From an uncultured Planctomycetia bacterium (lineage in GTDB: Bacteria > Omnitrophota > Gorgyraeia > Duberdicusellales > Duberdicusellaceae): a stretch of DNA of 64,000 nt. Of this stretch, positions 10,742-55,583 are shown piece after piece; position 1 is the stretch's first letter, and each line of letters opens with the position of its first letter. Location of the stretch: assembly GCA_964634935.1 (NCBI GenBank), contig CAZWJT010000005.1:71128-135127 (forward strand), given 5' to 3'. The notes beneath the pieces are model-generated. The model was not told where the DNA came from, made no database searches, and worked only from the letters and a program-made list of their open reading frames with translations. The translations under genes were made by a program, and so were the position numbers.

Positions 10742-10939
10742 TTACTTTAAATTCTTGCGTACTTCCTGTTCAGCCTGAAACCAAAAACTCCAATCATTGC
10801 CGAACGGCTTCCCGGCTTTCTCCCAGAGTTCAAAAGCCTTATTTTGAACCAAAGCGAATATTTCATTCTCACTGATCTTCTTTGATGTAGTGCTTTTTTG
10901 CGGCTTAGACACCACTTTGGACTTTGCTTTTTGGATCAT
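10742..10939 (-). CDS. DUF2934-family small protein
   Basis: The 65-aa protein carries 'EIFALVQNKAFELWEKAGKPFGNDWSFWFQAEQE', matching the DUF2934 consensus (I...AYELWE..G.P.G.D.EDW..AE). It overlaps the start of the first GH57 gene by 4 nt. Confidence 0.55.
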   Translation of the reverse strand: MIQKAKSKVVSKPQKSTTSKKISENEIFALVQNKAFELWEKAGKPFGNDWSFWFQAEQEVRKNLK

Positions 10940-16143: not shown

Positions 16144-16144
16144 A

Positions 16145-17275
16145 TTATTTCTCGGTTCTTTCTACGACTGGAGTAATCGTAATCGTGTCGATTTTGTCAG
16201 AAGAAGTTGCGGATATCGGAAATTCAAATTTTCCCTTTGGAAGATACTGGCGAAAACTGAAAGTTCCGTCATGGCGGAGCGGGGTTTGCTTGCCATGAAC
16301 AGTCAGAGTAGCATCTGGCTTAGTTCTGCCATAGACGATAAGTTCCGTATGCACCTCTAAGAAAAACTCTCTTTCCTTGGCTTTCTTCGAAGGCACAAAC
16401 GATGACATTCCGGAAGCGCCGAACGAAGAAATCTGCCGTTTAAATACTTCTTCAAACTTTCTCCGGCGTTCAAGAGAACTGCGACCTAAATCATAGAGAC
16501 CAAGTATCCGGAAATACTCCTCGTCGGGTAAAACCCACTCTTCATCAATAAGATCAGAAATTCCAAAATAAGGGGTCGAGACGATATTCGAACGACAAAT
16601 CATATAGAATTTTCCGCTGGCGGTTAGAAAACCGATATCAACACAAAAACTATTTTCGGGGTTTTCCACGTTGATATACCAATTTTGCGCAACATCGCCG
16701 ACTACAATATCAAAATAACTCTTGGCATTCAACCCATCGAAATGAGCAACGCCGGTCACATTGTATACGCGCAACGCCTTCCGGATATCGGTTCGTTCGT
16801 GTTGAGGAATGCTCTCGAAAACTTCGCGTTCGTGTTCGGCGGAAATATCCCAATAGGTATGAAGCCACCAAGGATCTCGTACTAAAAGCACAATACGGTT
16901 ATCCTGGTAGCGATACGGCAGATCCACGGAAACTTCTTTTTGTTCCTGAGCGCTCGTTTCGTATTTTGCGCTCTCAGCGTGCATCTTATTATTGAGCATG
17001 CCCGGGATTGTCTCTTCACGGATTAAATTTTCCCGCAAAGCAGAAGACGCTGGTTTGCCTTTGGCTATAACTTTTTTTCCTTGAGAGATAGAACGAACCT
17101 TCTGAACAAAAGAAGTTATCTTTTTCTTGGTTGCTTTCTTGTTGTCGGCTGGTTTGTTTGCAGAAGCTCGAGCAGTTTTTTCTATGATTTTTCCAAGTAG
17201 CGAAGTTGATTTCTTTTTTGAGGAAGCACTTGCTTTTTTTGAAGAAAATCCAAATACTCCGCCTTTTTTCATCAT
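16145..17275 (-). CDS. DUF4912-domain protein with a K/S/A-rich low-complexity N-terminus (GH57-associated partner)
   Basis: 'LLVRDPWWLHTYWDI' motif. The N-terminal ~110 aa are Lys/Ser/Ala-rich and likely disordered. The gene is immediately upstream of, and co-directional with, the GH57 genes. Confidence 0.55.
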   Translation of the reverse strand: MMKKGGVFGFSSKKASASSKKKSTSLLGKIIEKTARASANKPADNKKATKKKITSFVQKVRSISQGKKVIAKGKPASSALRENLIREETIPGMLNNKMHAESAKYETSAQEQKEVSVDLPYRYQDNRIVLLVRDPWWLHTYWDISAEHEREVFESIPQHERTDIRKALRVYNVTGVAHFDGLNAKSYFDIVVGDVAQNWYINVENPENSFCVDIGFLTASGKFYMICRSNIVSTPYFGISDLIDEEWVLPDEEYFRILGLYDLGRSSLERRRKFEEVFKRQISSFGASGMSSFVPSKKAKEREFFLEVHTELIVYGRTKPDATLTVHGKQTPLRHDGTFSFRQYLPKGKFEFPISATSSDKIDTITITPVVERTEK

Positions 17276-19848: not shown

Positions 19849-21750
19849 CTATCTTTTCTGGAAACACGCTTGCATCTTCTTACGAAGAAGTGCCTGTGCG
19901 GAAGAATCTCGGCTTAAGCGGAAAAATCTATGGGTGTATTCCAGAAACAACTTGCAATCACCCTGACTCTCAGCAATAAGCCCAAGAGCCAGATAGACAA
20001 GCGGCGAGAGCGCCTCGCCCTGATAAAATGACTTCTCCAACAATTCTTTTGCGCGTCGGTAATCACGCTGGTTAAAAAAATAAAGCCCTCCAAGCATGTT
20101 GGCCCGGCGGGAATGCGCGGAAAACTGCAATAACCGATTAAGCTCAGAAACCGCCTGGGGATAAGCCTCAAGCTGAGACAAAATTGCCGCATCGTTCAAA
20201 AATGGCTTCAAAATCCGGTAGGCATACTGAACACGGGATGGAAAACGATCGACCCTGGCAAAAATAACATGGTAATCATCCCAATAGAGCACCATAAACC
20301 GAGGATCTTCATCGAGAAATTTCCAAATGGAATATAAGCCATTTCGTGGATAAGTAAGAATAAAATAATCGATCGCATGCTTTGCAATGATTCTTTCAAG
20401 ATCTTCTTTGCTGCGCCCAGCAGTTACATAATCCTCGACGAAAAATTTTGGAGGATAACAGTCGATGACTCTTCCATCGATAAATACCTTTCGTTCAGGA
20501 TAAGCATTCCAAATCAAATAGCTTCCGAGATCAAGCTGGTTGAACATGTTCCCTTGGATATCAGCCTGCCTGAGAAACGAGACTACCCCCTTGATATCCC
20601 GCGAGGGGTGAATTCCAAAACCAAACTTTCTCTGCAGAAAACCGGTCTGATAGCCAAAGAATGCGACCCAAATCGAACCAAAAAGTCCAAGAAACGTTAT
20701 GATGAGAAATATTTTTTTGTCCTGTAGAAAACGAAAGGAAAATCTTCCTCTGCTTTCCGGAGAAGAATACTGTGCGTACGCCGCATAAAATACCACTAAA
20801 ATCCCATAACAAGCCGACGGAATGAAACGTACCGCGCGCAGAGAAAGCACAGAAAATAAAACCAGAAGAAACCAGGAATGGAGGCGTATTCTGCGGAAGT
20901 TGGCGAAAAACCATACGACTACGCAGAAAAGAAGAAAGAAATACAGGATAACATAAGGCATACTTAAATACATACGCTGGAAAGGAGACATCCACTCATA
21001 GATAAACTGTCTTTGGTTATAAAAGTTATCGAAGAAAAAACGCAATGGCTCAAGATAAACAAAAACCCCGGAAGGATTCATACAGGCGGCAAGACAGGTT
21101 GCGAAAAAACAAAGATAGTAAGAACGAGGGATTTCTTTTCGTGCAAACAATCTGCTTACAAAAAAGAATAAAAAAATCCCAGCCCCAAGAATAGCGGAAT
21201 AATTCATATTGGCCCACAGAATCTGCACCAGAGGTAAACCATACAGGAAGCGCGTCGGTCGCACTTCAGCAATAAAAAGCGTGCAGAGAAAAAAAGTCAT
21301 AAAGAAATCAGCAAAAATATGGGGACGCTCTATGAAGCGTTCGGCGCAGATAAATGCCCCGAAAAACAAAAGCAAATAGGAAAAAAAGTTATAAAAACGC
21401 AGTAGTATAAGAAATCGCGCGATTATAAGAAAAATTCCAAGCACCACGAGAAACTTGAACAGAATCAGACCAGTTATACCAGCCCATTGGTAAATAAGAT
21501 AAAAAACGACTTGCCCAAGCCATTCAACATTAATCCATACCGAAGCAGGACGCGTAAATGAAAAGGGGTCGCTCGTCAAAATCTTTCCTTCTCGGAAAAT
21601 GAACTCTCCAGTCTTCAGGTGTGTCCCAATATCGTCACTTTGGACGGGAAATATCGAGAGAACAAAAATAAAAAGAGCAAGAACACATATAGAAAAAACT
21701 GTTAAACCGTAAAAAGAACGGTCGCGATCACAAGATTGAACAATATTCAT
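19849..21750 (-). CDS. Polytopic membrane protein with C-terminal TPR repeats; GT-C-like (PMT_2/ArnT-type) glycosyltransferase candidate
   Basis: At least 10 predicted TM helices, with a 'QSDDIGTH' acidic motif in the first extracytoplasmic loop as in GT-C enzymes. The C-terminal ~150 aa are TPR-like ('AKELLEKSFYQGEALSPLVYLALGLIAESQGD'). Confidence 0.4.
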   Translation of the reverse strand: MNIVQSCDRDRSFYGLTVFSICVLALFIFVLSIFPVQSDDIGTHLKTGEFIFREGKILTSDPFSFTRPASVWINVEWLGQVVFYLIYQWAGITGLILFKFLVVLGIFLIIARFLILLRFYNFFSYLLLFFGAFICAERFIERPHIFADFFMTFFLCTLFIAEVRPTRFLYGLPLVQILWANMNYSAILGAGIFLFFFVSRLFARKEIPRSYYLCFFATCLAACMNPSGVFVYLEPLRFFFDNFYNQRQFIYEWMSPFQRMYLSMPYVILYFFLLFCVVVWFFANFRRIRLHSWFLLVLFSVLSLRAVRFIPSACYGILVVFYAAYAQYSSPESRGRFSFRFLQDKKIFLIITFLGLFGSIWVAFFGYQTGFLQRKFGFGIHPSRDIKGVVSFLRQADIQGNMFNQLDLGSYLIWNAYPERKVFIDGRVIDCYPPKFFVEDYVTAGRSKEDLERIIAKHAIDYFILTYPRNGLYSIWKFLDEDPRFMVLYWDDYHVIFARVDRFPSRVQYAYRILKPFLNDAAILSQLEAYPQAVSELNRLLQFSAHSRRANMLGGLYFFNQRDYRRAKELLEKSFYQGEALSPLVYLALGLIAESQGDCKLFLEYTHRFFRLSRDSSAQALLRKKMQACFQKR

Positions 21751-25437: not shown

Positions 25438-26337
25438 TCACTGGTCGCTATACCCTAATTCCGTGAGAATTCTTGGCTTAGACTGCCAGTCACGCACAAC
25501 CTTCACCGTCAAATCAAGAAAAACCTTTTTTTTCATGATATCCTCGATATCCTTCCGAGAAAGTATGCCAACTTGTTTTACCCGCTCTCCGGATTTTCCA
25601 ACAACAATCGGCTTTTGCGATTCTTTTTCAATATAGATCATTGCCTTAATATATAATACGTTTCCCTTGTCGGTAATTTCCTCAGTCTTTACTGCCACGG
25701 CATGGGGTAGCTCTTGCCGCAACATCGAGAAAAGTTTCTCACGGATAATGTCGGAAATTCTAAATTCCAAGGAGAAATCCGTGAGTTGATCTTTTTCATA
25801 GAACGGATCACCCTCCGGAAGAGACTCCAAAAGCGCCGATTTCAGCTCTCCAACATTCTGCCCGGACAACGCTGAAATAGGGATAAAATACTTAATCAGG
25901 TTTTTATTTTCGATCTTTTCCTTGCAAAGATCTACATAGAGAGAAAGATAATCGGTCGACCGGTCTATTTTATTCAGAGCCACAATTGTCGGGATGTTTA
26001 GTCTTGAGATGAGTTGCACTATTTTTTGCTCTTCCTGCAGGGGAAAGCGGGCAACATCAGCGACATATAAAACTATATCGCAATATTCGAGCGATTTCTT
26101 AGCCAAGCTATTAAGATGTGAAGACAGGTGATGAGAAAACTCATGCATACCCGGAACATCAACAAAAATCATCTGGTACTGTTCAGTAGTCAAAATACCC
26201 CGAACCATATGCCTGGTAGTCTGGGGGACAGAAGAAACTATACTGATTTTCTGCCCAACCAGTTGATTCACCAAGGTTGACTTACCCACATTTGGCCTGC
26301 CGAGAAGCGTGATAAAACCACACTGAAAATTACCCAT
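25438..26337 (-). CDS. era: GTPase Era
   Basis: G1 'GRPNVGKST', G3 'DVPG' and G4 'NKID' motifs, plus a C-terminal KH domain. It is 299 aa. Confidence 0.9.
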   Translation of the reverse strand: MGNFQCGFITLLGRPNVGKSTLVNQLVGQKISIVSSVPQTTRHMVRGILTTEQYQMIFVDVPGMHEFSHHLSSHLNSLAKKSLEYCDIVLYVADVARFPLQEEQKIVQLISRLNIPTIVALNKIDRSTDYLSLYVDLCKEKIENKNLIKYFIPISALSGQNVGELKSALLESLPEGDPFYEKDQLTDFSLEFRISDIIREKLFSMLRQELPHAVAVKTEEITDKGNVLYIKAMIYIEKESQKPIVVGKSGERVKQVGILSRKDIEDIMKKKVFLDLTVKVVRDWQSKPRILTELGYSDQ

Positions 26338-27475
26338 TTTCTCCTATCGTATGATCAAGTTCGCATAAAAAATCCTTCAGCACCCGCACTCCCAGGAAAA
26401 CATTCTTAACTGCCACATACTCGTCGCTTGCATGCGCGGTTGCACGACTGCCGAATCCAAACGCACAGCCGCATATTCCACGCTGAGCAAGATAAGTGAT
26501 CACGGTCGCTCCCTTACTGATGAGCGGCTTAAAACCAATCTGATGAGCCCGCAAGACCCGCTGAAACGTCCGCATCAAAATATTGCCCTTCTCCAACTGA
26601 ATGGACGGTTGATACGCCAAGACAGAAAATCTGCACGAAATGGCGTTTCGACGCACAATATCTCTCACCCGCCGGATCACGTCTTTTTTTCTTTGAGAAA
26701 AAAAACGTATATCAATTTCGGCCTTACAGGCATCCGCAACAATATTCACCTTTTCCCCGCCTTGAATTCTCCCAAAATTGACAGTCATGGCCTTTGTGGG
26801 ATCTTTTTCTCGGTATAACTTTTCAAGTTCCTTTATCTCTGACAAAATCTTCAGCATTTCCTCGATCGCGTTTCTTCCTCGTTCGGGATAAGCCCCGTGC
26901 GCTTTCTTTCCTGCGACTTCCAGTTCGATGTGAAGCAAAGCTTTCTGCCCATAAACTACTTCGAATTCATCACAATCAAGAACGACTCCATAATCGATCT
27001 TCCCAAGCCGAGGAAGAAGAGGAATAATCCCCAAAGCATTCCCTGTTTCTTCATCAGCTGAAGCAGCGAGAATAACATCAAGATTTTCAAGCTTTCCTTT
27101 TTCTTCGCGCAACTGCATAAGCGCCTCTGCGGCAACTGCAACATTAACTTTGCAATCCGTAGCTCCCCTTCCATAAACACGTCCTCTTTGAACAAACCCG
27201 CTGAAAGGATTGACGGTCCATTTATCGCCAGCGGGAACCGTGTCCAGATGGGGCGTTAACAAAATCTTTTTTCTATGGGTTTTCGAAGGAAAAGCAGCAA
27301 TGAGATTTGAACGGTGTTTCTTAAATTCAAGAATTTTGCATGAAAACCCTCCTGACCGAAGAAACGCTCGTAAATACCTCGCTACCTTTTCTTCATTCCC
27401 AGGAGGATTTTCCGAATTTATCCTCACTAAGGATGTTAAAATGGAAATTACGCGCTCTTTTTTATTCATGATCAC
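26330..27475 (-). CDS. M20 family metallopeptidase (ArgE/DapE-type deacylase)
   Basis: 'LTPHLDTVPAGDKWTVNPFSG' and 'GRGATDCK' are M20 metal-binding motifs. It overlaps era by 8 nt. Confidence 0.75.
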   Translation of the reverse strand: MIMNKKERVISILTSLVRINSENPPGNEEKVARYLRAFLRSGGFSCKILEFKKHRSNLIAAFPSKTHRKKILLTPHLDTVPAGDKWTVNPFSGFVQRGRVYGRGATDCKVNVAVAAEALMQLREEKGKLENLDVILAASADEETGNALGIIPLLPRLGKIDYGVVLDCDEFEVVYGQKALLHIELEVAGKKAHGAYPERGRNAIEEMLKILSEIKELEKLYREKDPTKAMTVNFGRIQGGEKVNIVADACKAEIDIRFFSQRKKDVIRRVRDIVRRNAISCRFSVLAYQPSIQLEKGNILMRTFQRVLRAHQIGFKPLISKGATVITYLAQRGICGCAFGFGSRATAHASDEYVAVKNVFLGVRVLKDFLCELDHTIGENG

Positions 27476-29495
27476 AGGAAAAATCGGTAACTTCTAATTC
27501 TGGGTTCAACGGGTTAAACCCCTTGTAAGCCAGAATGTAGTATGCAGTTGAAGAAACAGCCCCCGTCGTTGTACCAGAAGGAGTCCTCCAGCCGTGCCCA
27601 GTATCTACATTACCAGAAGAAGCATACGGAAGACAACCTCTTCCTTGGCCGGAAGCCGAGGGCGATGAAACTACCATCTTTATCAACTCATTCAAGTATT
27701 TCTCGGCTAATAAACAGTACCGTCGTGATTGTTCCAAATTTCCTTTTTGAGAATGAAAATAAGCCATAATCTTGAAAGCAAGAATCATTTGTGCCGTCCA
27801 CTCCCCAGAAACCACTCCGCCGCGAGCACTGTGCATACTTCGAGAGAAGTCGAAACCTTCGAGCGGAATTTTTTTGTTTTGAGTCTCAAAAAAAGTACTT
27901 ACTTTGCATTTCTGGATTGCAAACTCGATAATCGCATCGGGATCCATCCCGCACCCGAGAAGAATTTCTGGCCCAACCGCTGTAATCGACCACGCGTAGG
28001 TATCCGTAGCTATGGTCGCATCACCTTTCCCGCGATTCACCGGAATGTGCCCTTTGGTATAAGAATAGGCGCGCAACCAGTTAAGAACATCTTTCTTTGC
28101 GCGGCTTGAGCGAGCATCTTTGAGAAAAAATTCAAGCTGAAGTAAAAAAGCGTACGCATCAAGATTGTGTTCGGTAGCATACCAGTTTACTTCTGGCCCG
28201 CCCCGGATTCCTCCTTCGGCATCCTGAACGGTAGTAAGAAACTGGAATACCCCACGGGCCAATTCAAGGTATCTTTTATCCCGGGTCACAGACCAATAAC
28301 GCAAAGCAGCAAGACCAATCCAAATATTTGGCCCGCTGTGAACAATGTATTCGCAAGGATCCCCCGTTCGAGCATCATACGCGTTCATAAAACCATCTTT
28401 GTGTTTTTTAGCTGTGGAAAGGTAAAATTTCAATATTTTTTCTGCTGAAACGGTATCGTTATAGAGCAAAAATACAAAGACCGCTAAAGATTGATCGTAG
28501 CTAAAAGCCCAGTTCTCCAGGGTTTCATCACCCTCAAAACTCACAACCAGTCCTGTTTTTTGATTCTGATGACGCTTAATCCAGGAATACATTGCCTGCA
28601 CGCTTCGCTCATTGAATTGTTGCTTCTGGCCGGCCAGGACTCCGATGCGCTCAGTCTCTTGGGCAAGAAATGAATTTTCTTTCTGAAGCTCTTGACGCAG
28701 ATAACCATTCTCTCGCTGAAGCACTGCGATCTGCTTCTTCAGATTTTCCGCCTGCTCTTTGGTCTTTTGGATCTGCAAGACAACTTCTTGAACATCTGAA
28801 TCCATCGCGTGCAAAGATCGCTCTTTCTTCTGAAGCTGCTCATAATCTTGCATTAAAAGGCTATGCTCATATTGCAAATTATGCACCGTATTGTTTATTT
28901 TTCTTATCCGGTCATCAAGCAACCGTACAACAGTTTTCGATTGCGTAAGATATTTTTCTTGCAAACCAATCTCTTCATTTAAATTCGCTAAAACCCTCAC
29001 TAAGTTGCGGTTTGCCAAAACAACGCCACGGTTCCACATAAGCGTAGAAACTAGGAACATAAAAAGAACAACGACACACCCGATAATAAAACGGGGAATA
29101 AGAATTTTAGTCCACGTAAAGTTGAGAAGCATGCCAAGATCTCTTGGCTGAATATTTTGGAACATAAGTCCAAACTCATATCGAAAACCCTCGATGGTCT
29201 CATCCTTCCAAGAAACTAAAGCTTCCGCATGCAGCATCTGTCCAGTAAATGGAAGATGCATCGTGAGCTGAAAGCTGGTTTTCCCTGGCTCGATAAAATC
29301 CCAGAGTTGTCTCGGGAACGACAAACAACGCAATCGGATACCTCCACGCGAAACGTCAAAGGTAAATCCAGAAAAACTGGTTGTTTTCTTTTGAATGCCT
29401 ACAACCCTACATTCAACCGGAATGGCACTGCGGATACGCAGAAATTTTCTTCGGTCAAAGGCTGTTGATTTTTTACGCCTGAACACGCTCAACAT
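27462..29495 (-). CDS. PilZ domain, TM segment, coiled-coil and six-hairpin (alpha/alpha)6 glycosidase-like domain fusion protein
   Basis: N-terminus: 'RRKFLR' (RxxxR) and 'DVSRGG' (DxSxxG), a canonical PilZ. One TM helix ('LIPRFIIGCVVVLFMFLVSTLMW') is followed by a ~150-aa heptad-rich region. The C-terminal ~400 aa carry aromatic-rich helical-hairpin motifs ('SYDQSLAVFVFLL', 'TEHNLDAYAFLL', 'TAYYILAY') typical of (alpha/alpha)6-barrel glycoside hydrolases or epimerases. Confidence 0.5.
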   Translation of the reverse strand: MLSVFRRKKSTAFDRRKFLRIRSAIPVECRVVGIQKKTTSFSGFTFDVSRGGIRLRCLSFPRQLWDFIEPGKTSFQLTMHLPFTGQMLHAEALVSWKDETIEGFRYEFGLMFQNIQPRDLGMLLNFTWTKILIPRFIIGCVVVLFMFLVSTLMWNRGVVLANRNLVRVLANLNEEIGLQEKYLTQSKTVVRLLDDRIRKINNTVHNLQYEHSLLMQDYEQLQKKERSLHAMDSDVQEVVLQIQKTKEQAENLKKQIAVLQRENGYLRQELQKENSFLAQETERIGVLAGQKQQFNERSVQAMYSWIKRHQNQKTGLVVSFEGDETLENWAFSYDQSLAVFVFLLYNDTVSAEKILKFYLSTAKKHKDGFMNAYDARTGDPCEYIVHSGPNIWIGLAALRYWSVTRDKRYLELARGVFQFLTTVQDAEGGIRGGPEVNWYATEHNLDAYAFLLQLEFFLKDARSSRAKKDVLNWLRAYSYTKGHIPVNRGKGDATIATDTYAWSITAVGPEILLGCGMDPDAIIEFAIQKCKVSTFFETQNKKIPLEGFDFSRSMHSARGGVVSGEWTAQMILAFKIMAYFHSQKGNLEQSRRYCLLAEKYLNELIKMVVSSPSASGQGRGCLPYASSGNVDTGHGWRTPSGTTTGAVSSTAYYILAYKGFNPLNPELEVTDFSCDHE

Positions 29496-30579
29496 GCTTC
29501 AATCTTTCTCCCAGAGGAGGGTGGGTATAGAAAAAAAACTTAACGAGCCGGGAAGGGTGGGCGTCTGAGAAATTAACTCTCCCAAGTTTCTGGAGGGCTG
29601 CGATGAATGCCGCGGGATTGCGGGAAAGTTTTACAGCGTACTTATCCGCAGCAAACTCAAGCTTTCTGCGGAACGCATTGGAAATGGGAAGCCAAAAAAG
29701 AGAACAAAAAGAAAAAACAAGGGCAAAAATAGGAAAATTCAACACATGCGTGTACGGCAAGAAAGAAAGTTTCTCAATGACCGCCTGGAATAAAATATAC
29801 GAGCATCCAAAAATCAAGAAAGCCCCGGCGGCTTCGAAAACCAAACACCGGAATTCATCGCGTTTCTTAAAATGACCTATCTCATGGGCACAAACTGCCT
29901 GTATTTCTTGAGGAGAAAAACCTGTAAGAAGAGTATCGGCAAGCATCAGTTTCTTGCTTTGCCCTAAACCAACAACGGCAGCATTAGCTTTTTTTGTTTT
30001 GTGAGAAACTCGTATTTTATAGATATCCTTGAGATCCAAAGAAGCAGTGGCAGCAAGTAACAAAAGTTCCTGCCGAAGCGTCCCCTTTTCCAGAGGCGCA
30101 TAAGGATAAAATATCGGGATAAGAACAAGCGGAGCGATATAGGAAATAAAAATCCCGATAAACACCCAGAGAATCCAAAGATACACCCAACCAAAGGGTA
30201 ACGGTAAGAACACATAGAGACCAAAAAAACCAAGACTAAAGAATAATCCTTGGAGTAGAAAGCGCTTGCAGTAATCAAGAAACCATGTCTTTTTTGTCTG
30301 TGTATTAAGACCAAAGTCTTCTTCTAGACGGAAATTCTCCAAGAAATCAAGAGGAAGAAAAATCAGAAAAACGCAGCAATAGAATAAAAGGGCGTAGCGG
30401 TAATAAGAAAAAAAACTCGACAGCACCACGGGAAAAAACACGCCTCCTGTGACATAAAAAAGAGAGATAGCATGAAAAATAAACAAAAAACCGCACCAAA
30501 GAATCAACCTTGCAACCACGCAATAAATTTTGAGGCGCTGATAGTTTTTTTCCGGAGAAAACATATTATACTGCTTCAC
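29473..30579 (-). CDS. M48 family (Ste24/HtpX-like) membrane zinc metalloprotease
   Basis: Multi-TM N-terminal half, HExxH 'CAHEIGHFKKRD', and a downstream Glu in 'EFAADKYAV'. Confidence 0.75.
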   Translation of the reverse strand: MKQYNMFSPEKNYQRLKIYCVVARLILWCGFLFIFHAISLFYVTGGVFFPVVLSSFFSYYRYALLFYCCVFLIFLPLDFLENFRLEEDFGLNTQTKKTWFLDYCKRFLLQGLFFSLGFFGLYVFLPLPFGWVYLWILWVFIGIFISYIAPLVLIPIFYPYAPLEKGTLRQELLLLAATASLDLKDIYKIRVSHKTKKANAAVVGLGQSKKLMLADTLLTGFSPQEIQAVCAHEIGHFKKRDEFRCLVFEAAGAFLIFGCSYILFQAVIEKLSFLPYTHVLNFPIFALVFSFCSLFWLPISNAFRRKLEFAADKYAVKLSRNPAAFIAALQKLGRVNFSDAHPSRLVKFFFYTHPPLGERLKHVERVQA

Positions 30580-30949
30580 AGACGCGCACTGGCCGGGATA
30601 CTTTTTGCAAGAAACCCTGAAAACGATCGTCTTTTTTCAGATTATCAAGATCCTTATCTTGAAGCATATACTGAATATCATCGTACCCAAAAACAAAAGA
30701 TTTGGTTAGATGCCGCAATGATTGATCTATGTTTTTCAAAAGAGCATGGCTACACGCAATATTATAGTGTACGAGAGGATCGCAAGGATGCAACTGTGAA
30801 AGCATCGTATCGATTTTAAGCCCCTCCTCGTAGAAACCGTTCTCCGTATAAGCATTTCCCAGGCAAACCAATGCCTCAAAGAAAGGACGGTCCTGAACAA
30901 CCCCCTCATAGAAACGAATTGTAAAATTCTTTCTCCTATGTGTTTTCAT
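30566..30949 (-). CDS. Small TPR-like helical protein, hypothetical
   Basis: The 127-aa helical protein has TPR-like 'YNIACSHALLKNIDQSLRHLTKS' and overlaps neighbours on both sides by a few nt, consistent with an operon. Confidence 0.4.
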   Translation of the reverse strand: MKTHRRKNFTIRFYEGVVQDRPFFEALVCLGNAYTENGFYEEGLKIDTMLSQLHPCDPLVHYNIACSHALLKNIDQSLRHLTKSFVFGYDDIQYMLQDKDLDNLKKDDRFQGFLQKVSRPVRVCEAV

Positions 30950-33326
30950 CTTTCTCCAGGATAATTTGCTGTTTTAAACTGTCTAAAATGCGTTCAACCA
31001 CGTTTTTAAACTGAGGGTATTCTCCTCTGGTGACTTCGCGTCGGTGAATCGTCATCACTTGTAAAAATTGTACCATACTCTCTTTGTGTGTATAGAATAT
31101 TTTTAGAGAAACCCATGGACTGACAATATCAACAAAATCTGGCAGATATTTCACTTTTAAATTCCCCGGCAGATGAACGTCAGCGCTAATGCGCATCGTA
31201 TAAAGACCCTTTAAAGAAACCGGATATTTTCTATCATCTTTCGAAAGATACGAAGCATCTAATACGTTTTCGGAAAGCAAGGGCAACACCCTGAGTCCCT
31301 TAACTTTACTCAGCAGCGCTGAAGCATCAAACACATAACGGATAAAAGGAGATTCTGTCAGCGCCTCTTCCCCCCGTATCTTAAACTCTTTCATCGTCGC
31401 AACAGAAGATAGAGTACGCATTTTTTCTTGCAGATCCTCTTCAACAAGAGTAATCGGCGTATGTTGCAAATACAATCGCCTGATCGCGGAATAAAAACCG
31501 CTCGATTCAATGGTGCGGGTAACTCGAGCAGTTTCATCGTGTTTCATCGCGATATCCGTATGAATCGAAAGGCTATTCTGTGATAAAACCGGTGTATTCA
31601 CAATCAATGGTTTTTCCTTGGTGCAAATAAGCACAGAACGGCCCTGATCCGCAAGAGGTAAATCACCAAAGGAGACGGTTGAAGCTGTGGGATCCATAAA
31701 AATAAAAGAATCTTTAATCTTTACACACGCAATAGCATGATTAAAATACAAGCAAGGAAAATCCTCAACAAGATTATAGGCTTCCTCCGTTGGAATAAGC
31801 ACGGGATACGCCTCAATACCCACGCTCTTCAGTAAAGCGACTAAAAGAATCGCTTGATCCTTACAATCACCGTACTTGTTTAAAAACACGTCTTCCGCCG
31901 TATGCGGCTCATACCCACCCTTCCCGTATTCTACGGCAACATAGCGAATCTGCTGTGCGCAGAATTCATAGATTTTTCTCGCCCGGTCGCGTTCATTCTC
32001 GATGCCCGCGATCAGTTCTTTTACTTTCACTTTCATCATGGGAGTAAGCGTAAGTTTCTCGGAAATTAAAGCATTCCACCATTGGAAGATTTCATCCCAC
32101 GAAGTGAAGGTCGAGATAACAAGCGCTGGATTTACCAAAGAAGAAGCAACCATTTCTGCTTCTGGTAGAAACTGAGGAATATTTTCCATTTCCCATGTAA
32201 AACAGAGCTTGCCATTTTGGATTGATTTCTTTGGCTCAAGCGTCATATGCTCGGGGAGATATTCCGGATGTATGATTTTGAACGAAACAGGTTTTGTCTC
32301 AGGCACCTCAAGCTTCAATGATGCCTTTTGAACAGGATAATTTTCTTGGACATTGTAGATCAATGAGAAATCCTTACCATTGACCAATGAAGAGCGGTAA
32401 AACCTTGCCCTATATTCGACAACGCAGTTTTTGCTGACTTCCGGCATCGAAATAATTCTCACTCGAACATTGCTATACAAAGGAAAATTAAGATATTTCG
32501 AAACATCTCGAATATTTTCTTTCCCGGCGTAAACAACTCTACCTTCGGGGGTGATCGTCCGGGCAAATTCAAGCTCAACCCTCTCATAGGTTGAATCGTA
32601 TTCAAGCGCAATCTCTCCCCATTCTTCTTTGCCTTTCTCTTTGACTATCTTAACCGCCGCGTGAACAGTCGAAAGCATGGTATTCTCTTCTGAAACCTGT
32701 ATGAATTCATCAGAAAAAAGAACCACTGCGGACGCATCAGGGACGGATTCTGAAGCAGGAGCAGCAGTAATAACTTTCTTCAGAGAACTGGGTAGCTCTT
32801 CCTGGGCCAGAGTCGCCTTAATCCCTTGAATACGCTCACGAGCAAGCGCTTGATATGGATCAGAACCTACGGTTTTGTACACCTCTAACGCCTTCCCAAA
32901 AAGGTTTTTTTCCTCGAGAGTAACCCCATAGAGATAGAGTGCTTCTGGGTCAGAAAATTTTTCGACCTTTTCGAAAATCTCGAGAGCCCCCGTAAAATCA
33001 TTGAGACGAGCCAAGGTTTTACCGAGAAGCATCAAAGCGGTATTATCTTTTATTCCGGCAAGAAGCGGCTTGATTTTCTGGTAATCTCGATTGGAGTAGT
33101 AAAAATCTGCGCACTCGATCTTCAGCGATGGATCACCGGGAGCAGAAAGAATGGCTTTTTGGTAAGCCTTTTCTGCTTGCGCATAAAGAATGTTTGTTTG
33201 TTGGGCAAGAGTTTTCGCAGAGTGATCACGCGAAAAACATCCTGGAAGAAAAAGAATAAAAACAACAAAAAATATCCTAAAAGATATCTTCATTGCCTCT
33301 GGAGAAATCGCCCAATGCGCATACAA
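30936..33326 (-). CDS. DUF3857/transglutaminase-like cysteine protease-fold protein with N-terminal TPR region (secreted or lipoprotein)
   Basis: Signal/lipobox 'FILFLPGCF'. The transglutaminase core 'KYGDCKDQAILLVALLKSVGIEA' (G-D-C...) has downstream His and Asp. Its 796-aa size matches DUF3857-TGc-DUF3858 architectures. The start is likely the internal Met near 33293. Confidence 0.6.
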   Translation of the reverse strand: MYAHWAISPEAMKISFRIFFVVFILFLPGCFSRDHSAKTLAQQTNILYAQAEKAYQKAILSAPGDPSLKIECADFYYSNRDYQKIKPLLAGIKDNTALMLLGKTLARLNDFTGALEIFEKVEKFSDPEALYLYGVTLEEKNLFGKALEVYKTVGSDPYQALARERIQGIKATLAQEELPSSLKKVITAAPASESVPDASAVVLFSDEFIQVSEENTMLSTVHAAVKIVKEKGKEEWGEIALEYDSTYERVELEFARTITPEGRVVYAGKENIRDVSKYLNFPLYSNVRVRIISMPEVSKNCVVEYRARFYRSSLVNGKDFSLIYNVQENYPVQKASLKLEVPETKPVSFKIIHPEYLPEHMTLEPKKSIQNGKLCFTWEMENIPQFLPEAEMVASSLVNPALVISTFTSWDEIFQWWNALISEKLTLTPMMKVKVKELIAGIENERDRARKIYEFCAQQIRYVAVEYGKGGYEPHTAEDVFLNKYGDCKDQAILLVALLKSVGIEAYPVLIPTEEAYNLVEDFPCLYFNHAIACVKIKDSFIFMDPTASTVSFGDLPLADQGRSVLICTKEKPLIVNTPVLSQNSLSIHTDIAMKHDETARVTRTIESSGFYSAIRRLYLQHTPITLVEEDLQEKMRTLSSVATMKEFKIRGEEALTESPFIRYVFDASALLSKVKGLRVLPLLSENVLDASYLSKDDRKYPVSLKGLYTMRISADVHLPGNLKVKYLPDFVDIVSPWVSLKIFYTHKESMVQFLQVMTIHRREVTRGEYPQFKNVVERILDSLKQQIILEKDENT

Positions 33327-34991: not shown

Positions 34992-35071
34992 TGCCGGGAG
35001 AGGGATTTGAACCCTCACGCCGAAGCATACGCCCCTCAAACGTATGTGTCTGCCAATTCCACCATCCCGGC
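34992..35071 (-). tRNA. tRNA-Leu (anticodon GAG), 80 nt with an 11-nt variable arm, no encoded CCA
   Basis: Manual fold of the reverse complement gives acceptor GCCGGGA/TCCCGGC, anticodon stem TACGT/GCGTA (one G-U) with loop TTGAGGG, and T-arm GAGGG-TTCAAAT-CCCTC. Confidence 0.6.
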
Positions 35072-35483: not shown

Positions 35484-38400
35484 CTATTCAACAACATTCT
35501 GTCTGATGCGCTCCGGTTCCAAAAAATGAGAAAGTGAAGCGATTGGCTGAATCTGAACAATGAGAAAAGTGAATCCTTGAATATGCTCAAAGTGTTCACC
35601 AAGCTTATTCCCTAAAATGCTATTTTTCTGATTGAGCGATAACGATCTAAAATCAATACCGCCGGTATCGGAAGTTTGCCCTCTGCGTTCCTGGGAAATA
35701 ATCTTGCCTGAACTTAAGTTTTGGATAAAAGTATCGTATGCTTCTCGCACTACCCGACCATCATTCATCCGGTAAATAATCCACTTCATCGCGTTACGAC
35801 CATCTACCTCGGCGGAAACAATTGCGGCATAGTTAAAATTTTCGATTGCTTTTGCCATAGCATCGGCTGATTGTGCCGAAGTATACGTATCAGCGTATCC
35901 ATAAACCCTTTCTGAGTCGTCATGCCAAGGATGCGTAACAGCGGTCACACCCAAAGCAAATGTGATATCTGGTGGCCGCGAGGTCTGGTCGTGATTGATC
36001 TCAGCAGCCATAATCCGAACGTTCATCCCTCCCGGGGAAAGCGCAGTTTCCAGCTCAGAAAGATTGAAGTCTCGGGGCACAAAGAATACAATCTCATCTC
36101 CACCGTCTTGATTGATGATAACCGCTGACCCGCGAAGTCCAACTTCGCTTATGAAGTTTTCCTCGGGTATTGTCTGCCGTAGAATACCGATGAGCGTTTC
36201 CACCTTCTCTCGCATAGTACTTTTCACGAAATCATCTGCCTGAACCATCTCGTGAATAGCGACTTGCTCTTTATCCTGGACATCCTGGTCAATGACGGCA
36301 AGATAATTCTGATGGGCTTGAATGAGATTACCTTGAATCATCGCCCAAAAGCCTTTTACGTCAGCCGCCACTACTCTGCCTCCGTTCTGAGAAAGACGAT
36401 ATGCTTCACGATGAAATTGCTCAGATGAGGTGATGGTTCTGTTCTTTGGATTTGTTTCAATGAGAATAACTGCTTCTTGGAAAAGCGTAATATATTCACC
36501 AAATGTATCCGGAGGAGCCCTAGTCCGCAAAGCCTCCAAACCCTCGAGCACCCGTAGAATCCTCTGACTCTCCTGTTCAATATTGGCGCCAAGCCAGTTC
36601 TTAGGGTAGTCGAAAAGATCAAGAATATCCAAGTACTGCTTAAGCTGAAGCTGTGTACCTGCAAGGTGCGCATGAGCTTGCCCTCTTACCGCCTTCATCT
36701 TCTCTTCAGAAGGAGCCTCTTGAGGCCGCAAGCCCAAAGATTCACGCAGAGATTCAGCCTGCATAACGAATTGATCGAAAGTGTCCAGAGAAAAAATAGC
36801 TCCACGGATTTTATTGCCCAAATCACTGCTTATTTTAGCAATCTTTGCTGCCTGAAGTGCCTGAATATCAGCTAGAATGCGCGCCTGATTTGTAGGTTTT
36901 TTCACTGCCAAACTTACCCCATAGTTCGCCCTGAATTGAAAAGTACTGAGCGCTTCATAGTTCGAATATTCATCGTGAACAAAACGGTTCATTTCATGAG
37001 CAAGGTCCTGAATAACCCGCTCAAGTGCTTGGAGCAACAGTTCTGGATTACCCATAAACCTGCTCTCAAATACGGATTTTTTAATCACAAACTTGTCTTG
37101 CTTATAGTCAGAAGAAATTCTTTGCTCTTCGGAGCTGATAATCCCTGATTTCCGCAAGAGCTCAAGGAGAGTCATTTGGCGGTGTAATATAACCGCATCG
37201 TTTTCGGGCATACTGAGAATCTTATTGAGTAATTTTATGTCCTGCTGATTAAAAACCAATACGGAATCACCTTCTTGAACCTGCCGAATCAAAGCAACTA
37301 CCGGGTTTTGGGAAATTATCCTCTGGCTCATCTCCCCGAGCGTCTGAATATCCCCCTTGGTAAGTGGCCTGCGCATCATTAATGCTGAGAGGACATGGGT
37401 TACCCGAATCCCAAACTCATTGAATTTGTGGATACCAACAACAATACGATCAACAGCGCTTCTGCGTTGGGTATCTTTTCGTTGCTCATGCTCCACTCGC
37501 CTTTCTCCTGGCTTGACAGTGCTGCGTGGCTGTCGATGCCGCGCAAGAGTCTCAAATATGCTTTCAATATAGGTCTGGTAAATCCGGGCCAACTCTCTTC
37601 CTCTGTCGAATCTATCGAGCGGTAATTCGACCGTTCCGCGTACAATATCATCAAACACTCTGTGTGTTGCTTTTTGTTTACTCTGGGAAAACAACCAGTC
37701 AAAATAGGAATTGTCGTCTTCGTCCTCATGGAAAACCACAGCAGCCAAGTTTGCTTCTAGATCAGAAACATCGACTGTGGAAATGACCTCAGAGAACAAA
37801 GCAACATCTGCGCGCGCCTGAGCAGACATTGACAATCCCTCGACGATACGGTGCAGAACATAGAGCATAAACAAGTATTCGGGGGTTTGACGAACTTTCC
37901 CCTGGATAAGCTCAGTGAGATAGTGAAAATCTTCTCCAAAAAGTTGTTCCAACTGCCGAGGGTCAGCCGCTCTTAAAAAACTATCGATCGCTCCTTGCGC
38001 TTTCCCGGGCCACCGTTGAAGCATTTCTGCAACAAGTCGTTGCTCGGCAAGGTAAGTGCTTGAAACTTGACTTACAAGCCACTGAATTTCATCATCGATG
38101 CCGGCAAGAATCATTAATCCAGAGCTGGTTATATCTTTTCTTTCAAGGAGCATTTCCCGAATAGCTGGATTTGATCGGCACAGCTGTTCTGTGATCTGAC
38201 CAGCTTGGCGCTCAACAGTCGCCTCCTCAAAAATACTAAATAAGCCGACCAGCTGTCTATTCTTACTGCTATTGTCATATCGGCCTTGGCTGAACTGTTT
38301 ATGGAGCGCCTCGTGAATTAATGTTTTAGTGATTACCAGCGGATCTTCCAAATCGCTTGAAATAAGCACGATATAAGAAAAACCTCCCCGTCCATTGGGA

Positions 38401-41400
38401 ATACTGAGAATCATACCCTGCGCGGAAAAACCAAGAAGATCAGCCGCCCAAGAATCGCGAGAAACAAAAACTACTTGCTCTACGTCAAGCATATCTTCCG
38501 AATAACTGCGCAATACCTGATTAATAGCGTCAATTAAAAAAGCCTGTTTTTCCGATGCCATACGTACCGCCTGTGAATCAACGCCATGCAGAGCAGCAAG
38601 AAAACTGCGCACTCCACCATCCATATCCATTCTCTCTTGCACGCTGCTTACGATCATTTTTCTTTCGTCCAACAATTGTCGATGCCGATCCAGAGTATCC
38701 TGTAATGTCTTAATCACCCTCGGGTCTCCGTTATGCTTTTGTTCCCGGTTTAAATCTTTCTTGGTTCTTTCGATTGCAGAGGATAATCGGGAAAGATACC
38801 GGGCCAATATCCCATGGACATATTCTTTCTCGTGAGAAGAAACAGGATAAGAACCAAGCCTCTCTCCCCCGAGATCCTCCCGATCAACTCCTATACCCTG
38901 GCCCCACCCCAATCCTAAGGCTAACCCGACAAGCAAAGCCTGCCGGTTTGTAAAACCAAATTCTCTCTGCAAAACAGATAATTCTTCCTGAGGATCTTTT
39001 ATGCCAAAATTTTGAGGATGATCTCTCAGGCGCATTAAAGCAAGACGCATCCCGGCTGTAGACGGATCTTCACCAACCCGGCTCAGTATGTGCGCGGCAA
39101 TCGCACCCCAGTCGGTTAAGCCCGACTGCACCAAGGATAACTTTGTTGCGTTGAAATCCGACATAAGTTCCTGGATGAATCCCAATTCCCCGGAAATAAG
39201 CTTGCCTTGTACTTTTTGTTCTTTTGCGATAAGCAGGATGCTATCTTCTAAGGCCTGACGAGCTATTCCCATAGGCGATTGCTTTGTGATGTGCAAAAGC
39301 CTTCTTACTTGTGCCGGCGAAAGAATGATGCGCGCCTTCGGTAACGACCGGGTAAACATCAAGGAAACCTCTCGGTATACAGAAGGGCGCACGGAAGATT
39401 CTAAAATATCAAAAACATGGTCTACAAATCGTGGATGGCTACGAAAAATCCTGGGGAGCACTTTCGGCAGATGTATCGGTGACTGAGCCATCGCATGCAC
39501 AATAATCTTAGCTTCTCTTTTCCCGATGGGCACACTGTACATGACAAATATTTCTTCCAGTTTCTCGGCAATGACCGAACGAACAAAATCCGCAAATTGC
39601 CCTTTATGCCCGCTTATCTCTTTCAATTTATTTACAAGATACAAAAATTCTTTTTCCGGAGGATTATCAGAACGAATAACATCTTTCCGCTCCTGAATTG
39701 CTTGAGCCAAAGAAAGCAGCTTCATGTTTTGTGTCTCGCTCCGGATATATTGTGTCAAGAACCTATCGCTTTCACCAAAAACATACCGCTGAACTGCCCG
39801 CAAAAGATAATGGGGATTATTCTTGTCGCGTAAAGCGATTCTTAAAGATTCTCCATTGATTTTAATCCGAGCGATTTCCCTACCGCGGGCACTCATCACT
39901 ATTTCCCCGCTCACTGCATCGTTTTTATGAAAAATCCTCCCCATCCCCAGGGCGTTCAGAAAGGCAGGGAATGCTCCTCGAAAATGCAACGTAAGCAGAT
40001 TCGCTGCCACCAAATACTCAAAAAGCTCATGAAGATACGCGATAGTCTTTATATCCTGGGTTGCGGATCCGGTGGGAGCTAGGTTACCAAAGATTGCGAT
40101 AAAATTATTCTCGATTGAAACAAACCCGAATAAATCATCTACAAGAGAATCGAAGGTATACAGAGAAGGTCTCCGTTCCTCAGGAAGGTCGCGAAAAATA
40201 TTGAGAAGCGAAGTCAGTAAATCCTGCTTTTCTTTACTGAATCCGAAAAACTCAATATTCTGGATAATCCGCTCAAGATCAATCTTTCCTTTTTTACCCA
40301 ACGGGAGAACCTGCTCCTTGCCTGATTGGGTAATAAGCGTGATATTTTCTCCGGTAAAAATTTTAAACGCCTTCACGCGTTTCCCCATCTGCGGCAGCTT
40401 ATCCTCTGTTTGTTCATCAGCTCGACCAGAAGTAATCGGGGCGACATTAACCCGGACTACCGAAGCCTTACCGGGAATATTTGGCGGAACAGACGACGGA
40501 CGTAACATCTGTGGCATTTTGGTAAAATCAGCACCCCCGGAGTAATACCGACGCTTCACTGTCCGCCCAGTATGGTTGTCGTATTCGGATTTAATGTAGT
40601 TATAGATTCCCTTCTTGAATGCCTCGAGATACAGCTGATATATTTTTTCTTTTGCCGCGGTGTCTACAATATCGATCCCGGAAATCTTCTCTTTGTTGAT
40701 ATACCCGGTATAGACACTTTCTTTAAGTTTATTTTTGAACCAGACTGCCAGAATAAGCGAAGAATAAATTTGCCGGAGCCTGGCAAAATTCCTTCCAGAA
40801 TTGATCTCCTGTTCTATCTGAGGAAGAAGAATCTCGCGAACCATCCGGGATGAAATCCTATTCACCTGACTGATGGTTTGATCATTGAGAGAACTTTCGT
40901 GCTTAATGTAGCTTCGATTATTCTGCAAAGCTCGGTAATCTTCTTCCAGCATTGCCTTCAGCGAGGATTCACCGATGAGCGCCGTTGTCCCTTCCTCATA
41001 CACAGAAACTGAACCTGGAATAATCCAAATCTTGTTGAAGGTATTCACTGGGATATTTTCTGCTTGAATAACCCGGTAAATCTCTTGATATGTTTTTTTC
41101 CAGAAAGCTCGTCCTAATTCGGCCTCAGGATACGTAAGAGACGCTAAAAGTTGTTTTAACACATAGTCTTGCGAAAGTAGGTCTCTGCCTAAATCCGTTC
41201 CGCTGAGAGCGTGCGGCGCCACGCGATCTTGTTCGTATGGAGAAAGATTGACCCAAAGGTTCTCTTCGGGAATCGTAAGTCCGGCAAGAAAATACTTAAT
41301 CAACAGTTCAGCTTCTTCACGCAACATACCGCTCGAGGCGTCAGCAAGGTCATGCGAAGAAAGGATAAATTCAAGTTCGAACGGCTTGTCTGGATTGATC

Positions 41401-42923: not shown

Positions 42924-42954
42924 GGGTTCCTTTTTTCCTATTGATCTGAAATAC

Positions 42955-45850: not shown

Positions 45851-45907
45851 AGTTTCCCTCCCCTATAAAAACTTGTTATATTACAGCAAAAAACTGTATT
45901 TGTAATT

Positions 45908-47346: not shown

Positions 47347-47354
47347 GTGTCCTC

Positions 47355-48167: not shown

Positions 48168-48169
48168 AC

Positions 48170-48958: not shown

Positions 48959-48961
48959 TCT

Positions 48962-54268: not shown

Positions 54269-54280
54269 GACTTTTAAAAA

Positions 54281-55582: not shown

Positions 55583-55583
55583 G

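Follow-up and report, generated by a model that had tools for sequence, protein, structure and literature searches.

The window analysed here, a 64,000-nt stretch of DNA from an uncultured Planctomycetia bacterium assigned by GTDB to the Omnitrophota (assembly GCA_964634935.1, contig CAZWJT010000005.1, positions 71,128 to 135,127 of the forward strand), encodes a 677-amino acid (aa) protein in which an N-terminal PilZ domain is followed by a single transmembrane (TM) helix, a coiled-coil stalk and a predicted (alpha/alpha)6 barrel (27462..29495, minus strand; ATG start, stop codon at 27462-27464). With a probability of about 0.5, we read this PilZ-barrel protein as an N-in receptor for cyclic di-GMP (c-di-GMP) that controls a periplasmic glycan-cleaving or glycan-modifying barrel. 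The order of the domains had been proposed in the original prediction, made from the DNA sequence alone, and is supported here by Pfam matches, hydropathy, an AlphaFold2 (AF2) model and Foldseek comparison of that model with solved structures. The model was built on a 119-sequence alignment of full-length homologues and reached a mean predicted local distance difference test (pLDDT) score of 90.7 and a predicted TM-score (pTM) of 0.82. Besides the PilZ domain, Pfam returned weak signals only for the 677-aa protein (a sub-threshold Prenyltrans match at residues 411-486, considered below, and coiled-coil noise, the latter also given by NCBIfam). A database entry 100% identical to the protein (P0001) was found on a 184-kb contig of a public collection, and an 18-kb Logan contig carried the genes in the same order as the window.

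A protein search returned more than 1000 homologues, the best 120 of which were all full-length (635-789 aa), 37-46% identical and derived nearly all from metagenome-assembled genomes of Candidatus Omnitrophota. Those that had a name were labelled as “PilZ domain-containing protein” or “hypothetical”, occasionally as “GH76 protein” (glycoside hydrolase (GH) family 76) or, in one case from JGI, as “prenyltransferase beta subunit”. When one genome per GTDB species was scanned, 435 genomes proved to contain a relative; nearly all of the best 80 came from Omnitrophota, the others being a few bins with the labels Planctomycetia, Margulisiibacteriota or Deltaproteobacteria. Judged from these homologues, the gene is not a one-off fusion but an Omnitrophota-wide orthologue group. 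One member of 789 aa (P0061) was considered as a true fusion of an M48 protease with the PilZ protein and rejected, as only ~110 residues are added; a frameshift, or a merged gene call at the 23-nt overlap of the two genes, is the simplest explanation.

PilZ domain, membrane topology and stalk

The cytoplasmic PilZ domain (residues 14-126; 29118..29456, minus strand) was matched by PF07238 at 33.4 bits (gathering score 22.5; E=6e-8), and Pfam also matched it in 46/50 homologues. Six PilZ strands are present in the AF2 model (residues 26-32, 40-48, 52-57, 74-80, 87-100 and 105-115), with pLDDT mostly 84-95. The two strings on which the original prediction had based this domain, RRKFLR and DVSRGG, correspond to the c-di-GMP-binding motifs RxxxR (R16-K-F-L-R20; 29436..29450, minus strand) and [D/N]xSxxG (D47-V-S-R-G-G52; 29340..29357, minus strand), the coordinates of both being confirmed by translation. 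Across the 119-sequence alignment, R16 and R20 were each retained in 117/119 homologues (the other two rows being gaps) and D/N47 and G52 in 119/119, with S, G or A at position 49. The family profile also matched the solved PilZ protein YpfA/MotI of B. subtilis (5vx6), a c-di-GMP receptor, with E=2e-5. The retention of the motif residues in the family, together with this profile match, suggests that c-di-GMP binding by the PilZ domain is likely.

A single TM helix is predicted at residues ~131-155 (29031..29105, minus strand), where the Kyte-Doolittle hydropathy reaches its maximum of 2.76, and lies inside the long model helix 117-231. A hydropathy scan showed this to be the sole hydrophobic membrane-spanning segment in 119/119 homologues. 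The domain preceding it has a mean net charge of +8.5, and the flanking K+R count is 4.1 on the N side versus 3.3 on the C side. Barrel paralogs that lack a PilZ domain start with a signal peptide or a lipobox. The window further encodes MlaE, an MlaF-like ABC ATPase, MlaD and a putative beta-barrel porin (BBP2_2) at 44876-48961 (minus strand); these genes indicate a diderm envelope, so that an outer membrane and a periplasm exist. A nucleotide receptor, for its part, has to be cytoplasmic. Taken together, the single TM helix, the charge bias, the paralog signal peptides, the diderm envelope genes and the cytoplasmic need of the receptor support a type II (N-in, C-out) inner-membrane protein with its PilZ domain in the cytoplasm and its barrel in the periplasm. 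This is the orientation that had been proposed, and none of the indicators placed the PilZ domain in the periplasm.

The periplasmic stalk (residues 156-308; 28572..29030, minus strand) shows a hydrophobic periodicity of 3.5 residues, and both the heptad character and the ~150-aa length attributed to it in the original prediction were recovered. The straight rod was not, since AF2 gave an antiparallel helical hairpin. In the model, the helix leaving the PilZ domain runs unbroken from 117 to 231 and contains the TM segment; it is followed by a turn at the hairpin tip (232-235) and a return helix (236-308), pLDDT being mostly >90 in both helices. Stalk length varies across the family from 117 to 151 residues in steps of ~7 residues, and all gaps fall at residues 215-243, at the predicted tip, which fits the hairpin model. 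The stalk most likely folds back, as modelled, into a hairpin of ~11 nm.

The periplasmic barrel and its candidate active site

The six-hairpin barrel (residues ~309-662; 27510..28571, minus strand), of which the end of the stalk provides the first helix, comprises ~365 aa arranged in the AF2 model as 12 alternating helices (296-308, 332-344, 348-361, 387-404, 407-423, 441-458, 461-477, 497-507, 519-530, 564-583, 587-605 and 647-658). When the model was compared with the PDB using Foldseek, the best 50 matches were all carbohydrate-active (alpha/alpha)6 enzymes, with E about 1e-9 to 6e-7 and target-normalised TM-scores (TMt) of up to 0.72. The best match was the isomaltose glucohydrolase KfIG (5z3a-f, GH15; E 1.8e-9), and the endo-alpha-1,4-mannosidase MmpH (7qsj) gave a TMt of 0.70-0.72, the structures of these two enzymes together ranging over E 2e-9 to 2e-8 and TMt 0.63-0.72. 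Cellobiose, glucose and GlcNAc 2-epimerases were found with YihS isomerases at ranks 5-50 (E 6e-9 to 6e-7), and the GH76 mannanases 6y8f, 7nl5, 4v1s and 4boj were matched at E 1e-7 to 6e-7 with TMt 0.61-0.65 and 14-15% identity. The kinship with glycoside hydrolases and sugar epimerases suspected from the sequence was thus reproduced by structure prediction and Foldseek. On the evidence of the model, the barrel belongs to an uncharacterised family of the six-hairpin glycosidase/epimerase superfamily, and no Pfam model in the copy searched covers it.

GH76 was the sole family detectable by sequence. The C-terminal profile matched 6u4z with E=1.2e-5 over two hairpins, and Pfam GH76 (PF03663) was weakly matched in 20/50 members (best E 2.5e-6). 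The 677-aa protein itself gave no Pfam GH76 match at E≤0.1, and a distant PilZ-less homologue (P0175) reached 26.6 bits (cut-off 25.9), although no single stretch passed alone. A broader profile (A4) found no sequence match to MmpH, GH15 or GH125. In HMMER alignments to 6u4z, 4mu9 and 6shd, the position of the GH76 catalytic Asp-Asp (nucleophile and acid/base, ahead of a conserved Trp helix) is occupied by S387-G388-P389-N390 (28326..28337, minus strand), and G388 and P389 are invariant in the PilZ-barrel family. GH76 membership was rejected because of this replacement and the sub-threshold profile in the 677-aa protein; in the mechanistic sense the barrel is not a GH76 enzyme. What stands of the glycosidase- or epimerase-like C-terminal domain first proposed is accordingly its (alpha/alpha)6 fold, to which no named family can be attached.

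An (alpha/alpha) toroidal fold is also found in proteins that do not act on glycans, including prenyltransferases, terpene cyclases, LanC and thioester-domain-like proteins, and several small signals point towards these: the only C-terminal Pfam match of the 677-aa protein is Prenyltrans (E=9.8e-5), the JGI label given above names a prenyltransferase, and LanKC appeared in a profile search with E=0.24. The Prenyltrans match, which is also all that Pfam yielded for the “aromatic hairpin motifs” of the original prediction, nevertheless scored 22.3 against a threshold of 26.5 bits with no domain passing alone and recurred in 2/50 members only, and the LanKC value is not significant. No LanC, terpene cyclase or prenyltransferase fold was present among the best 50 Foldseek matches, and the domain lies outside the cytoplasm, apart from prenyl-diphosphate or lanthipeptide substrates. 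Conservation of Cys530 and Cys621 is limited to the PilZ-linked subfamily (<70% in the wider family), and no CxEQ thioester-type motif was seen on reading the translation, a systematic motif search not having been made. With sub-threshold or insignificant profiles and no fold match, the LanC, prenyltransferase and thioester-domain readings were rejected, and a non-glycan toroid of any kind is considered highly improbable.

Conservation within the barrel was assessed in a 27-sequence alignment of diverse members (A4), in which S319, Y333, D334, G388, E442, D498, G547 and E565 are invariant. The four carboxylates among these are also 95-98% conserved in 62 distant, PilZ-less homologues. D334 (28494..28496, minus strand), a candidate catalytic carboxylate, forms a Y333-D334 pair at the N-terminus of inner helix 1; it is invariant in alignments A1, A2 and A4 and present in 95% of the distant homologues. 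E442 (28170..28172, minus strand; 98%) opens the E-H-N-L-D motif 442-446 at the N-terminus of inner helix 3, D498 (28002..28004, minus strand; 95%) lies in an A-T-D-T-Y motif at the N-terminus of inner helix 4, and E565 (27801..27803, minus strand; 97%), a candidate catalytic base, begins an E-W-T motif at the N-terminus of inner helix 5. In the PilZ-linked subfamily E382, D446, R488, D492, D549, R558, D631 and H634 are invariant as well. The conserved polar residues are all located, in the AF2 model, at the N-termini of the inner (alternate) helices or in the long outer-to-inner loops, and this set is thus placed by the model on the loop-rich face of the barrel where six-hairpin enzymes bind their sugar substrate. 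No GH76 counterpart to the invariant carboxylates was found in the aligned stretch. In MmpH, Asp47, in the loop before the second helix, serves as the acid and Glu262 as the base (PMC9883506). Counted from the start of the barrel, D334 and E565 have sequence offsets of 38 and 269, similar to those of the MmpH pair as positions along the chain and not by superposition, and their equivalence to the MmpH acid and base is a lead only, drawn from this likeness of offsets.

Histidines bear on a second candidate chemistry, in which the barrel would be a periplasmic sugar epimerase or isomerase (of the N-acylglucosamine 2-epimerase (AGE), cellobiose 2-epimerase or C5-epimerase-like type), or a polysaccharide lyase with a polymer in transit as its substrate, so that c-di-GMP would control modification and not cleavage. 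His443 and His634 are invariant and His386 near-invariant in the PilZ-linked subfamily, and AGE enzymes use His pairs. The epimerases and YihS fill Foldseek ranks 5-50 with E within 10-100 fold of the top hydrolases, and some family members give weak Pfam GlcNAc_2-epim and C5-epim_C matches. In the wider family, however, His443 and His634 fall below 70% whereas the four carboxylates are kept, and no polysaccharide lyase was among the best 50 Foldseek matches. The AGE-type enzymes known to us are, moreover, found in the cytoplasm, and their substrates are mono- or disaccharides. An epimerase or lyase is on balance unlikely, and a glycan-cleaving barrel remains the preferred reading.

The barrel extends well beyond the PilZ-linked proteins. 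The barrel profile, run with HMMER against the full set of 1.84 billion cluster representatives, matched 1783 clusters at E≤1e-3 and 215 at E≤1e-30; the best 148 matches included 53 PilZ-linked, 42 short stand-alone, 33 other multidomain and 15 giant proteins (at least 1500 aa), so that both secreted stand-alone and giant-protein paralogs exist. None of ten PilZ-less relatives submitted to one Pfam scan reached a gathering threshold. The barrel appears to define a carbohydrate-active-like family that has no model in the Pfam copy searched and is found as well in secreted proteins and in giant proteins of Omnitrophota. In five proteins of 3000-7900 aa (P0182, P0188, P0204, P0223 and P0266) it is embedded in the giant chain, sometimes in several copies. 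Pfam scans of the giant proteins were uninformative, returning HTH, radical SAM and TPR domains; the recognisable domains that accompany the barrel in two of them are HTH or radical SAM/B12-binding/TPR, an odd combination for secreted enzymes.

Two further loci connect barrel paralogs to carbohydrate genes. At one, a stand-alone barrel paralog adjoins a GH113 gene. At the other (L088, 40-5253), the order runs from a lipobox-bearing, secreted stand-alone barrel to a soluble protein with two PilZ domains in tandem and on to a CUT1-type sugar ABC transporter (SBP_bac_1 and two permeases), a second, independent association of the barrel family with PilZ and carbohydrate uptake. The PilZ gene of this locus was considered as one half of a split PilZ-barrel fusion (Rosetta stone) and rejected, being a soluble tandem di-PilZ with neither TM helix nor stalk. 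The arrangement matches that described downstream of giant genes in the Omnitrophota giant-gene preprint, which reports a GH76-like fold in giant proteins, with pilZ genes and sugar-uptake systems downstream of them.

Conserved neighbours and other features of the window

Read along the minus strand, the gene order is aminotransferase, TPR-DUF3857-transglutaminase-like, small TPR, M48, PilZ-barrel, M20, era and RumA-like methyltransferase. Successive genes overlap by 8-37 nt, the only gap being one of 26 nt before the final methyltransferase gene, and an AsnC-family regulator gene lies 10 nt upstream of the aminotransferase gene. The original prediction had M20 and era upstream and M48 downstream; as the gene is on the minus strand, this is reversed. 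The Ste24-like M48 membrane metalloprotease (29473..30579, minus strand; Peptidase_M48 8.4e-26, M48_N 1.2e-10) is upstream, overlapping the start of the PilZ gene by 23 nt, and the M20 ArgE/DapE-family deacylase (26330..27475, minus strand; Pfam M20 and M20_dimer, with TIGR01910 at 212.8 bits just below its cut-off of 217.6) is directly downstream with a 14-nt overlap, followed by era. Promoter-like sites between 23.5 and 35.6 kb numbered 16, versus 18.9±4.2 in shuffled sequence, and terminator-like sites 19 versus 13.2±3.6, at or near chance in both cases; the transcription unit is thus inferred from overlapping stop and start codons alone.

Synteny was counted across 80 fetched related loci (upstream n=58, downstream n=67). 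M48, which had been put forward as an operon partner, was found in 6/58 loci only. The persistent neighbour, which had gone unmentioned, is a lipoprotein with TPR, DUF3857, transglutaminase-core and DUF3858 domains (30936..33326, minus strand; DUF3857 2.4e-30, Transglut_core 2.1e-11), whose gene immediately precedes the PilZ-barrel gene on the same strand in 47/58 loci and often overlaps it. The Cys488/His530/Asp545 triad of this protein is unchanged in 55/55 orthologues, most of which have a lipobox. The TTG start listed for the gene in the window is probably 11 codons early, the likely start being an internal ATG that gives MKISF...FLPGC with a lipobox. The invariant triad and the lipoprotein signal suggest that this is probably an active cysteine enzyme facing the periplasm; full-text literature searches found no description of the function of such a DUF3857-transglutaminase partner. 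A small TPR protein of 127 aa with weak TPR matches and no signal peptide (30566..30949, minus strand) is encoded upstream in 13/58 loci, and an M20 gene occurs ≤3 kb downstream in 46/67. At one locus, in a related genome (L003, 9964-12780), a 938-aa fusion of Peptidase_M1 with Omp85 is encoded directly downstream of the PilZ-barrel gene in place of M20.

The constancy of the transglutaminase-like lipoprotein raises the main rival to an enzymatic barrel. The LapD-LapG pair of Pseudomonas fluorescens is reportedly established as an example in which a c-di-GMP receptor governs a transglutaminase-like protease on the other side of the membrane, and the barrel could by analogy be mainly a c-di-GMP-controlled module that docks or sequesters the lipoprotein, which would then be a cysteine protease cleaving a surface protein or adhesin. 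The LapD-LapG precedent counts in favour, as do the persistence and intact triad of the lipoprotein and the fact that both it and the barrel face the periplasm. The four barrel carboxylates, on the other hand, are equally conserved in secreted stand-alone and giant paralogs that have no such neighbour, which points to an intrinsic ligand or catalytic site. The neighbour is also missing at 11/58 related loci and belongs to PF01841 with DUF3857/3858, not to the LapG family, and the receptor is a PilZ domain and not a degenerate EAL. A switch of the LapD/LapG kind in which the barrel is not an enzyme is therefore considered improbable, and a barrel acting on glycans itself is preferred.

The layout and neighbourhood of the gene also recall Alg44, the alginate co-polymerase of Pseudomonas, in which PilZ, TM helix and a periplasmic membrane-fusion-protein-like domain follow one another. 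The protein might correspondingly be a co-polymerase, or a periplasm-spanning scaffold of an exopolysaccharide or secretion apparatus, with the hairpin reaching an outer-membrane or TPR partner and the barrel clearing stray polymer in the manner of AlgL. It shares with Alg44 and membrane-fusion proteins the PilZ domain, single TM helix and periplasmic alpha-hairpin, its conserved neighbour is a TPR-bearing lipoprotein, and polysaccharide genes (Wzy_C, PMT_2/TMEM260, GT4 and ABC2) occur within 8 kb in some related loci. These genes vary from locus to locus, however; no synthase (glycosyltransferase family 2, GT2), porin or exporter is consistently adjacent, and no glycosyltransferase adjoins the PilZ-barrel gene in the window or in four other loci inspected. 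As the AF2 model also lacks the membrane-fusion-protein beta-domains of Alg44, a scaffold of this type seems quite unlikely, and an enzyme-like barrel under c-di-GMP control is again favoured.

Elsewhere in the window, a UDP-glucose/GDP-mannose dehydrogenase and two NAD-dependent epimerase/dehydratases (52365-55591, minus strand) are nucleotide-sugar genes and show that precursors of surface glycans are produced by genes located ~25 kb from the PilZ gene. A row of three GH57 genes (4-alpha-glucanotransferase type, plain GH57, and GH57 branching enzyme with BE_C), followed by a DUF4912 protein gene (10936-17275, minus strand), looks like a compact alpha-glucan/glycogen metabolism cluster. A 633-aa open reading frame (ORF) without Pfam match (19849-21750, minus strand), also called on the Logan contig without a Pfam record (L001, 9964-11865), contains an RxxxR...DxSxxG-like string that may be due to chance. 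A CHASE2-SpoIIE (PP2C phosphatase) sensor adjoins a retropepsin-like aspartyl protease domain protein (gag-asp_proteas/Asp_protease_2) at 41808-44868 (minus strand), an unusual pairing. A 2039-aa ORF with no Pfam match at E≤1e-3 (35484-41603, minus strand), just upstream of the AsnC/aminotransferase genes and beyond a tRNA gene, may be a large surface protein typical of Omnitrophota. An Rfam scan of the window found two tRNAs only (34992-35071, minus strand, and 59798-59879, plus strand) and no c-di-GMP riboswitch. The GC skew is negative in every 2-kb bin (1-64000) and nearly all long ORFs are on the minus strand, indicating that the window lies within one replichore with strongly co-oriented genes.

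Proposed mechanism and comparison with known systems

In the mechanism proposed here, c-di-GMP would bind the cytoplasmic PilZ domain, and the signal would travel along the continuous helix of the model through the membrane into the periplasmic stalk (inside-out signalling), the folding back of the hairpin placing the barrel adjacent to the outer face of the inner membrane. Binding would probably alter the activity, oligomeric state or partner contacts of the barrel, which would most likely cleave or otherwise modify a glycan or glycoconjugate located in the cell envelope or on an attached surface. The barrel is probably a hydrolase, an epimerase or lyase being possible; by analogy with MmpH and clan GH-L, the leading guess would be an inverting hydrolase in which D334 serves as the acid and E565 as the base. 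In most Omnitrophota the protein would act alongside the co-transcribed TPR-transglutaminase-like Cys-His-Asp lipoprotein in the periplasm.

Several observations weigh against this mechanism. The AGE-type epimerases score nearly as well as the hydrolases in Foldseek, so that the barrel may follow either chemistry, and the “DD” of GH76 (YDDNVW in 6u4z, IDDMEW in 6shd) falls opposite G388-P389, or S387/P389. The hairpin could be an artefact of monomer modelling, the true form perhaps being a parallel dimeric coiled coil. The 11 loci without an adjacent transglutaminase-like gene have HypD/HypF upstream instead, or LPG-synthase-C together with an RNase T-like exonuclease. The operon in the window holds no glycosyltransferase or exporter, and its setting among housekeeping genes (aminotransferase, era, rumA) means that part of the synteny may be inertia. 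A motif scan of the window ORFs found no GGDEF, EAL or HD-GYP motifs; GGDEF domains are reported in the phylum by the giant-gene preprint.

A wider role may be envisaged from the distribution of the gene. In an extended reading, which is tentative and rather unlikely, the protein would belong to an Omnitrophota-wide inside-out c-di-GMP module in which the PilZ receptor switches a periplasmic glycan-cleaving enzyme of a new GH family and, with the transglutaminase-like lipoprotein, remodels a cell-surface or host/prey-contact glycoconjugate, as an attachment or predation switch in ultra-small epibionts. The Omnitrophota are a little-known phylum of uncultured, host-dependent nanobacteria whose envelope biology and host attachment are poorly understood, and the near-universality of the gene in such a phylum suggests that its function is likely tied to one or the other. 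If the module were real, c-di-GMP would here for the first time be seen to act across the membrane, via a PilZ domain, on an extracytoplasmic glycosidase. The linking of a PilZ domain, by one TM helix and a rigid stalk, to an enzyme-like barrel outside the cytoplasm would bring glycan breakdown or editing in that compartment within the reach of c-di-GMP control, and would give a compact model of a second-messenger signal crossing the membrane through a single helix. The claim that this architecture had not been described was upheld as far as full-text literature searches go: these found no description of PilZ fused to a periplasmic glycosidase-like domain, the main PilZ-architecture survey (Galperin & Chou) not being covered.

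Among known systems, LapD-LapG shares the general logic only, namely a cytoplasmic c-di-GMP receptor with a periplasmic output encoded beside a periplasmic transglutaminase-fold Cys-His-Asp enzyme. LapD senses through a degenerate EAL via HAMP and has a small non-enzymatic periplasmic domain, and LapG is a DUF920/C93 (BTLCP) protease, whereas here the receptor is PilZ, the output a six-hairpin barrel and the neighbour a TPR-DUF3857-PF01841-DUF3858 lipoprotein. On the side of the barrel, the GH76 alpha-1,6-mannanases (Aman6 of B. circulans, 4D4A, and 6U4Z of B. thetaiotaomicron) share the (alpha/alpha)6 fold and are weakly detectable by sequence, but their defining Asp-Asp aligns to the invariant Gly388-Pro389. 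The AGE superfamily (N-acylglucosamine and cellobiose 2-epimerases and YihS) has the same fold and is weakly matched in some members through GlcNAc_2-epim; these are, however, cytoplasmic small-sugar enzymes with a catalytic His pair, whereas the barrel histidines are conserved in the PilZ-linked subfamily only. MmpH and clan GH-L (KfIG, 5Z3A, GH15; GH125) provide the best structural matches and are inverting (alpha/alpha)6 hydrolases with a carboxylate acid and a Glu base, but share 10-13% identity with no sequence-level match, and are soluble, cytoplasmic or secreted enzymes without PilZ, TM helix or stalk.

To our knowledge, PilZ effectors either work in the cytoplasm, as do BcsA, YcgR and MrkH, or have a periplasmic scaffold that is not an enzyme, as does Alg44. 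BcsA resembles the present protein in that a PilZ domain with RxxxR and DxSxxG is fused to a carbohydrate-active module and c-di-GMP gates glycan chemistry; its C-terminal PilZ domain and its GT2 domain are both cytoplasmic and gating proceeds via an active-site loop, whereas here receptor and putative enzyme would be on opposite sides of the membrane. The closest layout is that of Alg44, with a cytoplasmic N-terminal PilZ domain, one TM helix and a periplasmic alpha-helical hairpin. Its periplasmic beta-domains are non-enzymatic and the Alg8 synthase is encoded in the same operon, whereas the protein described here carries a 365-aa enzyme-like helical barrel with no adjacent synthase. Alg44 nonetheless offers the clearest earlier example of a c-di-GMP signal being passed into the periplasm by a single-pass PilZ protein in the service of polysaccharide biology.

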